DNA from: Escherichia phage vB_VIPECOOM01
Direction: 5' to 3' (one strand)
Length of the DNA: 64,000 bases
Sequence record: OQ721909
Part shown: one piece after another, positions 47,787 to 50,078 of the stretch
Position numbering within the stretch: the first letter of the stretch is position 1
How the letters are laid out: each line of letters begins with the position of its first letter
The notes under the pieces: model-generated
The model's database searches: none
Told to the model about the DNA's origin: nothing
The model's input: the letters and a program-made list of their open reading frames with translations, nothing else
Program-made: the position numbers and the translations under genes

Positions 47787-48364
47787 TTGTATACTGATTC
47801 CATAAGGGTTGTTACTTCATCTATTTTATACCAATGACTTTCAACCATTTCACGCTTGCTTATATCATCAAGAAAACTTGCATCTAATTGAACCGTTGAA
47901 TTAACACGATGCCTTTTAACGATGCGAGAAACAACTACTTCATCTGCATAAGGTAATGCAGCATATAACAGAGCGGGTCCGCCAATTACACTAACATTAG
48001 AATTCTGGTCAAGAATAGTCTTGAATGGCGAACCAGAAATTGATACTTGAATTTCGTCGCCGGAAATGTAATCTATATATTGCTCCCAAGTAATATAGAA
48101 ATGTGCTAAATCACCGTCTTTAGTTTCAGGATAATCACGCTCAAGGTCACACACTACAATATGTCTACGACCAGGAAGTAGTGTAGGCAATGACTGGAAC
48201 GTTTTAGCACCCATAATCATAATTGTACCTTCAGTACGAGCTTTAAAATTCTGAAGGTCCTTTTTAACTCGTCCCCATGGTAAACCATCACCTAAGCCGA
48301 ATGCTAATTCATTAAAGCCTTCGACCGTTTTAGTTGGAGAATAAGCGAATACCAATTTAATCAT
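47783..48364 (-). CDS. frd: dihydrofolate reductase
   Basis: 193 aa as T4 DHFR; syntenic with td. Confidence 0.93.
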
Positions 48365-48609
48365 TACGCAAAACCCCTTTCAATAAACCATTCAGTGGCT
48401 TTATTAACATCAAAGAATAATTCTTCATATGTCTTTTCTTTGTTTTCAAAGACTGTCACACAAACACGTTGACATTCTCCACAGTATTCTTCTGACATAC
48501 TCAAAGCGTCAGAAAACATTTCATTAAACTCATTTAAATCAGGATTATGCAATGCGTTAAAAATTGCATAATCGAATTCGTCATTCATAAATTCAAATAC
48601 AAAAATCAT
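48364..48609 (-). CDS. hypothetical acidic protein (frd.1-like)
   Basis: Start moved to ATG 48609 (GGAG upstream, ATGA overlap with upstream stop); 81 aa. Confidence 0.5.
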
Positions 48610-48965
48610 ATTATCTCCCATTGAAAAGGGCCAGGAACATATCCGCTAGAGTTAACCATTTTAACTAAAGTTGCCATTCCTCTATTAACTGCTTGTGCGA
48701 TTTCATCAAAAATTTTGTCACTACCACCGTAAAAGTCATTAAAAAATTCTAACGCGTTCTCCCGAACTTTTAATTTACGGCCGACAATTTCGCCTACAGT
48801 AAATTCTCTTCCGCAAAATCCAGTGTAAATTGTAATTACACCCGTTAACTGACTTTCACGGGAATTTATGTCGTGTGATAAATTAATAAAAGCCGTCCCA
48901 CGCGCGGTTTTAAGTTGGCAACGAATTTTTACTTGAGTAATTCCAGTTACATGAATGTCAGACAT
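48606..48965 (-). CDS. hypothetical protein
   Basis: 119 aa ORF with ATG. Confidence 0.5.
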   Translation of the reverse strand: MSDIHVTGITQVKIRCQLKTARGTAFINLSHDINSRESQLTGVITIYTGFCGREFTVGEIVGRKLKVRENALEFFNDFYGGSDKIFDEIAQAVNRGMATLVKMVNSSGYVPGPFQWEII

Positions 48966-48975
48966 AATATTTTCC

Positions 48976-49218
48976 TCAAACAGACTTTTTCACAATTTTC
49001 CAATCAGCTTTAAACTGATCAACGTCAGAATAGTAAATCCAGAATCCTGCGCTTTCTCCATCCTCATAAAGAGGGCATCCATCGCATTCATCTTCCCATC
49101 CCATATCACGTAAAAGATGTTCAGCTTTTTCAACAAGTTCAGAATCTTTACCAATGATATTAAAATACCATTTACCTCTAACTTCTGAATCTTTAATGCT
49201 CTGGCGTTGTAATCTCAT
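48976..49218 (-). CDS. hypothetical protein
   Basis: 80 aa; early promoter 49245-49273 upstream. Confidence 0.5.
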   Translation of the reverse strand: MRLQRQSIKDSEVRGKWYFNIIGKDSELVEKAEHLLRDMGWEDECDGCPLYEDGESAGFWIYYSDVDQFKADWKIVKKSV

Positions 49219-49244
49219 TTTATTCTCCTTAGTTGATAGGGTAA

Positions 49245-49273
49245 TAGTATCACACTACTACCCTGTTGTAAAC
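49245..49273 (-). promoter_or_regulatory. early promoter (GTTTAC -35)
   Basis: Minus-sense 'GTTTACaacagggtagtagtgtgatactatta'. Confidence 0.45.
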
Positions 49274-49659
49274 TACTTTTTGAAAGTTTTTCGCAAAAGT
49301 TCAATGATTTCATCTACATTGTTTTCGTCTACAATGCAGTGAATTTTTGTTACGCCAGAAATCTTGTCTTCGACTTCATCTTCTTCAGAAGTCGGTTCTT
49401 TATACTCGCGGAAACAATAAAACTCTTCTTCACTAAGTTCAAAATAATCATCACCCATACCATCATCATTATAGATTTCGCCATTAGCACAAATGATTTC
49501 AGTTACATAATCAAATCCATCTAAACTTGATATTGATTTAACTTCAAACCAACCACCATTTTCTTGAATGATGCCGACCATATTAGCATTTGATGAACTA
49601 ATATCAATGAAAGATTTAATACGATGTGGATTTAACTCATATTTTTTGCCAATTTCCAT
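49273..49659 (-). CDS. hypothetical acidic protein
   Basis: Start moved to ATG 49659 (GAGG SD); 128 aa. Confidence 0.5.
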   Translation of the reverse strand: MEIGKKYELNPHRIKSFIDISSSNANMVGIIQENGGWFEVKSISSLDGFDYVTEIICANGEIYNDDGMGDDYFELSEEEFYCFREYKEPTSEEDEVEDKISGVTKIHCIVDENNVDEIIELLRKTFKK

Positions 49660-49704
49660 TTTGATTTTCCTCATTTTGATAGGGGCTTGACAGCCCCTTG
49701 ATAA

Positions 49705-49931
49705 TTATTGTTCGATCAGTCCCATGTAAAATTCTGCGTCTTCAGCATCCATACCATCGCAATATTCATTAGCCATAAAGCGGGTGAGGTCTTCAAGAGG
49801 ACCTTCAATAACAATTTGAATGCTCCAAAACTTAGAATCTTGCACACTTGTGATACTAAGTTCAGGATAACGATTACGAATAATTTCTTCAATATATTCA
49901 AAATCAACGATGTCAATATCAACTTTAGCCA
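49705..49931 (-). CDS. hypothetical protein (frd.3-like)
   Basis: ATG 49931 with AAGAGG SD ('[13 protein letters not shown]...', 75 aa); the longer ORF-track version lacks an SD. Confidence 0.5.
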
Positions 49932-49976
49932 TATTGTTTTCCTCTTTAATCGTCAGCAGTATTGCCGATAGTTGTA

Positions 49977-50005
49977 TAGTACCATAGAAGAACAGGGATG
50001 TAAAC
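49977..50005 (-). promoter_or_regulatory. early promoter (GTTTAC -35) downstream of gene 32 terminator
   Basis: Minus-sense 'GTTTACatccctgttcttctatggtactata'. Confidence 0.45.
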
Positions 50006-50037
50006 CGTTTTGTGAAAAAAATTTTTGAAATAAAAAA

Positions 50038-50056
50038 GGGGACCTCTAGGGTCCCC
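50038..50056 (-). terminator. hairpin terminator after gene 32
   Basis: ggggacc-tctag-ggtcccc followed on minus strand by T-run. Confidence 0.7.
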
Positions 50057-50078
50057 AATTAATTAGTAATATAATCTA

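Follow-up and report, generated by a model that had tools for sequence, protein, structure and literature searches.

The 64,000-nucleotide window analyzed here comes from Escherichia phage vB_VIPECOOM01 (OQ721909), and our subject is the group of small open reading frames (ORFs) that it carries between gene 32 and the dihydrofolate reductase gene frd. A first-pass annotation had listed five ORFs of 75–128 amino acids in this interval. All of them are present on the minus strand, in the order gene 32 > frd.3 > frd.2 > frd.1 > ORF-B > ORF-A > frd > orf68 > td, and they match the five coding sequences that the public record OQ721911.1 places between gene 32 and frd. That record, to which the 1.8-kb stretch is 100% identical, belongs to vB_VIPECOOM03, a phage of the genus Tequatrovirus from hospital wastewater in the Philippines that was grown on E. 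coli ATCC 25922. Phage T4 (NC_000866) has only frd.1, frd.2 and frd.3 at this place, as had been noted, and correction of the ORF boundaries does not bring about a one-to-one match with them: ORF-B (48606–48965, 119 residues) and ORF-A (48364–48609, 81 residues) remain extra to the T4 set. What the window carries is the gene 32–frd early region in the version common among Tequatroviruses, and thus an ordinary arrangement. To judge from the alignments described below, this five-gene layout is the widespread older state and that of T4 is derived. The upper bound of 50058 given earlier for the gene cluster was the end of a TTG-started ORF that exists on paper only and runs into the gene 32 terminator hairpin.

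ORF-B is a member of the Pfam family PF23905 (DUF7247; 103.2 bits against a cut-off of 27) and of phrog_3566 (E = 4.6e-40), and all ten invariant columns of its family (M1, C16, Q17, G23, I27, D32, G42, G49, G96 and L100) are kept in it, but the near-invariant Pro22 is replaced by Arg. In the AlphaFold2 model, which was built from a 63-sequence alignment, five beta-strands are followed by two helices (predicted local distance difference test score, pLDDT, 75.5; predicted template modelling score, pTM, 0.67). A Foldseek search of a viral library with this model returned only other DUF7247 proteins, one of them from a podovirus, and a HMMER search for DUF7247 among 1.84 billion representative proteins gave five clusters, one of which was a spurious repeat protein. 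The product had been described as hydrophilic with a Gly-rich ‘FYGGSDK’ segment. Its grand average of hydropathy is –0.03, so that it is not notably hydrophilic, and the segment holds three substitutions private to this allele. Because this stretch is missing from the other (110-residue) allele class and from the Klebsiella and Enterobacter homologues, it is not a motif. The label ‘virion structural protein [STEP3]’ that OQ721911.1 attaches to ORF-B was rejected, as it has no other support and fits poorly with an early promoter and with the absence of the gene from T4 and T2.

ORF-A belongs to phrog_3183 (E = 1.3e-42) and to no Pfam family, and it lies directly upstream of frd here as well as in T6, T2 and Enterobacter phage IME523. 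An upstream ATG would extend it to 85 residues, but the homologues lack that ATG. The protein is very acidic, with a net charge of –13 over its 81 residues and an isoelectric point (pI) of 4.05. A triad of cysteines (C43, C46 and C50 in YCGECQRVC; pattern YC..GEC..VC) is kept in a Kanagawavirus homologue with only 28% identity, a hint that the protein binds a metal or forms a disulfide. The structure model of ORF-A (pLDDT 54.5, shallow alignment) is unreliable.

The relationship to T4 can be read from the 71-bp gap between frd.1 and frd of that phage. When it is aligned with the window, the frd.1 stop codon, the ORF-B ribosome-binding site and the ORF-B ATG prove to be retained, and they are followed by a decayed frame (MYVIEIIQVSIRFQLK-stop) which, beyond a gap of 9 nt, agrees with codons of ORF-B. 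At the end of the spacer, the final codons of ORF-A are joined to the start of frd. A short-word BLAST search with the same 71 nt found nucleotides 24–46 of ORF-B in the allele of phage HY01, identical at 22 of 23 positions and in register. Since remnants of ORF-B persist in its spacer, T4 is a deletion derivative. The deletion spans the region from about codon 17 of ORF-B to the end of ORF-A, and a single event of ~540 bp removed both genes. In T2 and ACG-C40, ORF-B is cleanly excised between two similar ribosome-site/ATG contexts. We regard this evolutionary and anatomical part of our account as nearly certain.

The arrangement is common. Megablast with the interval matched 592 phage records, with a coverage of ≥80% of the interval in 306, and the number of Tequatrovirus-type records available for comparison is ~600 (592 by DNA, ~608 when counted as carriers of frd.1 at ≥80% identity). 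By tblastn, ORF-A occurs in 469 phage records, in almost all of them at 95–99% identity, and ORF-B in 377, of which ~240 are T-even phages of Escherichia, Shigella or Yersinia and the remainder are Klebsiella and Enterobacter phages with 30–37% identity. Klebsiella phage JD18 (Jiaodavirus) and IME523 (Kanagawavirus) both carry a DUF7247 gene between a frd.1-like gene and frd; in IME523 a phrog_3183 gene, the ORF-A homologue, stands directly upstream of frd, and in JD18 the neighbor of ORF-B is an unrelated 54-residue ORF. Within the T-even phages, the slot is found in several states. Both genes are present in T6, HY01, RB27, PST and KIT03; ORF-A alone is present in T2 and ACG-C40; ORF-B is followed by an unrelated 113-residue gene behind a 5' remnant of ORF-A in NiC89, Ac3 and EO1; and T4 has neither gene. 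The 113-residue ORF of NiC89 was considered as an ORF-A homologue and rejected. The tblastn match at that locus is the 5' ORF-A remnant upstream of the replacement gene. Scans of IMG/VR yielded nine loci, too few Tequatrovirus alleles to be of use. In a Logan contig (SRR30535882, 3001–3591), an ORF-B of the 110-residue class reads through its stop into ORF-A and gives a 196-residue product. Seen on this one metagenomic contig, the fusion may be genuine or may stem from an error in a single base.

T6 and PST already annotate both genes (RB51ORF237 for ORF-B and RB32ORF231c for ORF-A in T6; ORF235 and ORF234 in PST), so the arrangement is already part of public annotation. It is annotated in many genomes, and the families are on record as domains of unknown function. 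The earlier view of the two genes as accessory and of the region as plastic agrees with these data: T4 does without both genes and T2 and ACG-C40 without ORF-B, while other phages add an 86-residue ORF, swap ORF-A for the 113-residue one or carry a 22-residue micro-ORF. The further suggestion that the genes are lineage-specific does not hold, given that both are widespread, occupy the same slot in other genera and, in the case of ORF-B, have left a vestige in T4.

A comparison with nine other Tequatroviruses shows that the genes of the interval evolve at very different rates. The proteins of ORF-A, frd.1 and gene 32 are 96–99% identical wherever an intact copy is present, whereas those of ORF-B are 62–78% identical where present. 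The closest ORF-B allele among 50,697 phage records, that of LF73P3, has 84% identity. The median pairwise ratio of non-synonymous to synonymous substitution rates (dN/dS, Nei–Gojobori) is 0.51 for ORF-B, with a maximum of 1.23, as opposed to 0.07 for ORF-A, 0.06 for frd.1 and ~0.05 for gene 32. Pairwise medians were used because, in the genes on either side, parsimony counts over the whole tree appeared to be too high, plausibly owing to incomplete or wrongly delimited coding sequences. In DUF7247 genes, dN/dS is 0.11 within the 110-residue class and 0.07–0.22 in the Klebsiella and Enterobacter phages, similar to that of frd there. Such low values identify DUF7247 as a real, constrained gene. 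Purifying selection acts on frd.1, ORF-A and the DUF7247 genes of other genera, and the excess in ORF-B is confined to the 119-residue class (0.40) and is strongest on the lineage of the window.

Among 22 alleles, the ORF-B of the window has 14 private nucleotide changes as compared to one each in frd.1 and ORF-A (Fisher p = 0.0004). All 14 are non-synonymous, an outcome with a probability of 0.033 under neutrality, and eight of them fall in residues 68–85 (binomial p = 0.0003), which in the AlphaFold2 model extend from helix 1 across the turn into the beginning of helix 2. Six of the changes replace one hydrophobic residue with another and the rest raise the net charge, which is +1 here and –3 to –7 in the other 119-residue alleles (pI of 7.8 versus 4.7–5.3). 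The allele was seen on five assembled contigs. Two mutational sources were considered for this pattern. Directed hypermutation of the adenine-specific kind made by diversity-generating retroelements is excluded because the private changes start from all four bases and the 64-kb window holds no second copy of ORF-B that could serve as a template. A patch recombined from a divergent allele was rejected as an unlikely source of the 68–85 cluster, as the segment has no private synonymous changes.

Both GTTTAC promoters of the first-pass annotation stand, on the minus strand at 50005–49976 (P1, upstream of frd.3: GTTTACA, 17 nt, TGGTACTAT) and at 49273–49244 (P2, overlapping the frd.2 stop codon: GTTTACA, 17 nt, TGATACTAT). 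A generic promoter scan places their cores at 50004–49976 and 49272–49244, each consisting of TTTACA, 17 nt and TACTAT with a TG preceding the –10 box; the scan as a whole gave 15 matches versus 13.8 expected from shuffled sequence, i.e. no excess. It is the conservation of the boxes, and not the scan, that makes us accept these promoters as real. GTTTACA (–35) and TG(G/A)TACTAT (–10) are invariant in the window, T4, T6, HY01, T2 and KIT03. Across these six T-even phages, the spacer of P1 varies with both boxes fixed, and P2 is nearly invariant, with identical boxes and two variable spacer positions. Both promoters fit the early-promoter consensus TTTACW-N17-TAYWAT reported for the pair PST/T4 (PMC4122927).

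P1 directly follows the intrinsic terminator hairpin of gene 32 (50038–50056, minus strand; GGGGACC-CTAGA-GGTCCCC and then a T run), for which a folding energy of –14.3 kcal/mol is predicted and whose stem is invariant while the loop differs in T2. Together they make up a terminator/early-promoter layout of the PeSL type. No hairpin adjoins P2, which heads the unit frd.1 > ORF-B > ORF-A > frd > orf68 > td. In this unit, ORF-B and ORF-A overlap by ATGA and ORF-A and frd by TAATG, and stop/start overlaps chain ORF-B, ORF-A, frd, orf68 and td. The earlier description of five coupled ORFs is therefore right for the ORF-B/ORF-A and ORF-A/frd junctions and wrong for the rest of the interval, where gaps of 10, 54 and 45 nt separate the genes. 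In T4 and T6, an insert of 83 nt separates frd.1 from its early promoter, at a site that corresponds to 49219–49243 of the window. The insert carries a hydrophobic 22-residue micro-ORF (MFAPYIMAAVMLVCLYLLIKAC) with its own ribosome-binding site (region ~5006–5143 of the T4 stretch and ~3420–3557 of the T6 stretch compared), which is unannotated in the T4 RefSeq entry and annotated in ACG-C40 (0237a). Folding also predicts a GC-rich 7-bp hairpin between frd.3 and frd.2 (49681–49698, minus strand; –14.5 kcal/mol, z = –3.4 versus shuffles). It has no T run and is possibly an RNA-stability or processing element. An Rfam search of positions 46500–51800 gave nothing near any gathering score.

The three remaining ORFs are clear orthologues of T4 genes, again on the minus strand. 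Frd.3 (49705–49932, 75 residues), immediately downstream of gene 32, matches PF05798 with 135.8 bits (cut-off 28.1) and is 98.7% identical to its T4 counterpart at the amino acid level; according to a preprint, the frd.3 mRNA is among the most abundant NAD-capped RNAs of T4. Frd.1 (48976–49218, 80 residues), behind P2, matches PF17438 (DUF5417) with 113.3 bits (cut-off 23.9) and is 97.5% identical. Frd.2 (49273–49659, 128 residues) matches PF03197 with 132.5 bits (cut-off 29) and is 97.7% identical. An alternative upstream ATG of frd.2 at 49674 would give 133 residues; the ribosome-binding site precedes the second ATG, which gives the 128-residue product. Frd.2 also has a weak match to the PHROG goF (E = 2.4e-4). 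The T4 protein is predicted to have an LSm-like fold and to form a family with GoF and MotB.1, and T4 frd.2 amber mutants are viable and plate with efficiencies near that of the wild type (PMC12152347). In a CRISPRi-ART screen, frd.2 was the only T4 fitness gene of unknown function (PMC11879866). In contrast to this fitness status, frd.2 falls into three deep allele classes in otherwise near-identical Tequatroviruses (~98%, 64% and 43% amino acid identity to the window), the third of which is saturated in dS.

The genes that flank the interval are also encoded on the minus strand. Gene 32 (50079–50987) is 97% identical to T4 gp32, the single-stranded DNA-binding protein, and is labelled ‘hypothetical protein’ in OQ721911.1, so that a well-known gene has been missed there. 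The gap between it and gene 59 (50988–51086) lacks the homing endonuclease gene segG, which T4 has. Downstream lie frd (47783–48364; PF00186), orf68 (47580–47786, 68 residues; phrog_9550) and td (46720–47580). The last of these is a continuous reading frame with neither the group I intron nor the I-TevI gene that T4 has in it. The orf68 product is basic and belongs to no Pfam family, and the gene overlaps its neighbors by ATGA and TAATG. Its slot is empty in T4, where frd and td overlap, and is taken by an unrelated 115-residue ORF (phrog_1928) in T6, T2, HY01 and KIT03. Orf68 is present in 236 phage records and has distant (~43%) homologues in E. coli phages that are not T4-like.

Our account of the interval, which as a whole we consider reasonably probable, is as follows. 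Host sigma-70 polymerase would transcribe all five genes immediately after infection. P2 would yield a polycistronic message from which ORF-B and ORF-A would be translated in step with the nucleotide-synthesis enzymes encoded by frd and td. The two proteins would be early accessory factors that the phage can do without and whose targets are host components, not phage replication itself. ORF-B of the 119-residue class, above all the allele of the window, would have been reshaped by amino acid replacement. The 14 private changes, the shift in charge of about +5 and the focus on the hairpin of helices 1 and 2 are what would be expected if the binding partner varied between hosts; such a partner might be, for example, a host defence or takeover target. 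The pattern of rates and the repeated loss of the gene make ORF-B a candidate host-interaction factor, an assignment that we offer only tentatively. It is just as doubtful that DUF7247 takes part in an arms race, whether by inhibiting a bacterial defence or takeover target or by being sensed by a defence system. If it did, the window allele would be an adaptive escape or retargeting variant in which 14 replacements reverse the charge of one helical surface, and in T4 and T2 nature would have supplied null mutants, i.e. a ready-made test system.

Several observations weigh against this account. Both the transcription and the coupling are deduced from the nucleotide sequence, and the repeated natural loss of ORF-B, in T4 and in T2, shows that the gene is easily dispensed with. 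We found no experimental or homology-based function for ORF-A or ORF-B. Foldseek with the ORF-B model gave no significant match in the PDB (best E = 0.27, TM score ≤0.36), no profile match of either protein to PDB sequences had an E below 0.3, NCBIfam gave no matches and PADLOC only a chance-level Cas8b at E = 0.035. A literature search for DUF7247, DUF5417, the RB32/RB51 ORF names and the protein accessions found no mention of them. The selection analysis comprises 22 alleles and carries no correction for recombination. Parsimony on the terminal branch of the window ORF-B gives four synonymous and 20 non-synonymous changes (dN/dS ~1.4), which is compatible with neutral drift. Finally, position 22, a proline in at least 90% of the DUF7247 family, is an arginine here (P22R), and this fits decay as well as it fits adaptation.

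These same data bear on the strongest alternative, namely that ORF-B is on its way out and that its replacements are neutral drift under relaxed constraint in a frame that is still open. We take this to be a substantial possibility, although the odds are somewhat against it. A dN/dS of ~0.7–1.4 on the window lineage, the loss of the near-invariant Pro22 and the independent losses of the gene in T4 and T2 are what a decaying gene would display, and by our estimate a frame that received ~24 random substitutions would stay open about one time in three. Drift, however, should spread evenly over the protein and include synonymous changes, whereas the private changes are exclusively non-synonymous and crowd into 18 of the 119 residues. 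The ten family-invariant residues have all survived, and the frame, the ribosome-binding site and the ATGA overlap with ORF-A are intact. For the ORF-B of the window, positive selection and relaxed constraint cannot be told apart with these data.

The remaining explanations are less probable. The ATGA overlap, the gene order shared by Tequatrovirus and Kanagawavirus and the natural in-frame ORF-B::ORF-A fusion of 196 residues would all suit a two-protein module, in which a complex or an inhibitor/partner pair accounts for the adjacency and the translational coupling. We nevertheless think such a module unlikely: ORF-A stands alone in T2 and ACG-C40, ORF-B is found with the unrelated 113-residue neighbor in NiC89, Ac3 and EO1 and with the 54-residue one in JD18, the fusion comes from a single metagenomic contig and is one point change away from a normal stop codon, and the evolutionary rates of the two genes are uncoupled (0.07 for ORF-A versus 0.51 for ORF-B). 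Their embedding in the frd–td unit would alternatively suggest that both proteins serve the deoxynucleotide-synthesis machinery of the phage as accessory subunits or as regulators, and the overlapping stop and start codons from ORF-B to td as well as the high conservation of ORF-A point in this direction. This is a decidedly improbable reading, as T4, the reference system for that enzyme complex, lacks both genes, neither protein resembles any nucleotide-metabolism family found in Pfam or NCBIfam, and small early ORFs are in general often interleaved with metabolic genes in T4-like phages. The least credible proposal is a recent acquisition of lineage-specific cargo by this phage. The two genes beyond the T4 set and the uniqueness of the ORF-B allele, which is at most 84% identical to any other, might have suggested it. 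But the two genes occur widely and in synteny across genera, T4 carries the ORF-B vestige, and the flanking frd.1 and ORF-A are 96–99% identical across phages.

The account favored here corrects a T4-centered view. In the gene 32–frd interval, it is the T4 genome that is reduced, with two early genes fewer than most of its relatives, and this is of consequence to those who use T4 as an annotation template. DUF7247 emerges as an early protein of small size that is under constraint in some of the T4-like lineages, changes fast in others and has been deleted in the two that are best studied. Host-range or counter-defence factors typically show such a profile, and the practical lead that it offers is modest. 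The natural nulls T4 and T2 and the carrier T6 provide a simple genetic contrast.

There is no new kind of system here, and the interval can be compared with several known ones. T4 Arn and T7 Ocr, which are small, acidic and made early, mimic DNA and thereby block nucleases of the host. ORF-A resembles them in being small (81 residues), early by its promoter context and very acidic, but the likeness is one of bulk acidity only. No sequence similarity to any characterized protein was detected. A conserved cysteine triad like that of ORF-A is, to our knowledge, not a feature of Arn or Ocr. The LSm-like family that unites GoF with MotB.1 and Frd.2 is represented in the window by its 97.7% identical Frd.2 orthologue; this comparison concerns a single ORF out of the five, for which the fold is a published prediction made for the T4 protein. 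PeSL cassettes, which combine a terminator hairpin with an early promoter, mediate gene shuffling in the hyperplastic regions of T4-like phages (PMC2839356, PMC4122927). The gene 32 hairpin followed by TTTACA-N17-TACTAT has this layout, and the interval exhibits gene gain, loss and swap. However, the T4 and T2 breakpoints lie inside coding sequence or at ribosome-site/ATG contexts and do not coincide with the cassette, so that the PeSL mechanism did not make these deletions.

The closest parallels are the T-even phages themselves. T4 shares all three orthologues (97.5–98.7% amino acid identity), the promoter boxes and the gene 32 terminator with the window, but has lost ORF-B and ORF-A; moreover, no ORF separates its frd from its td, its td contains the intron with I-TevI, and SegG lies beside gene 32. 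T6, RB27, PST and HY01 agree with the window in the five genes, in their order and overlaps and in the two promoters. The window lacks the 83-nt insert with the micro-ORF that T6 shares with T4, and it lacks the extra 86-residue ORF of RB27. In T6, ORF-A, frd.1 and frd.3 are 96–100% identical to those of the window. ORF-B differs more, being in these four phages 69–75% identical to the window allele with its 14 private replacements.

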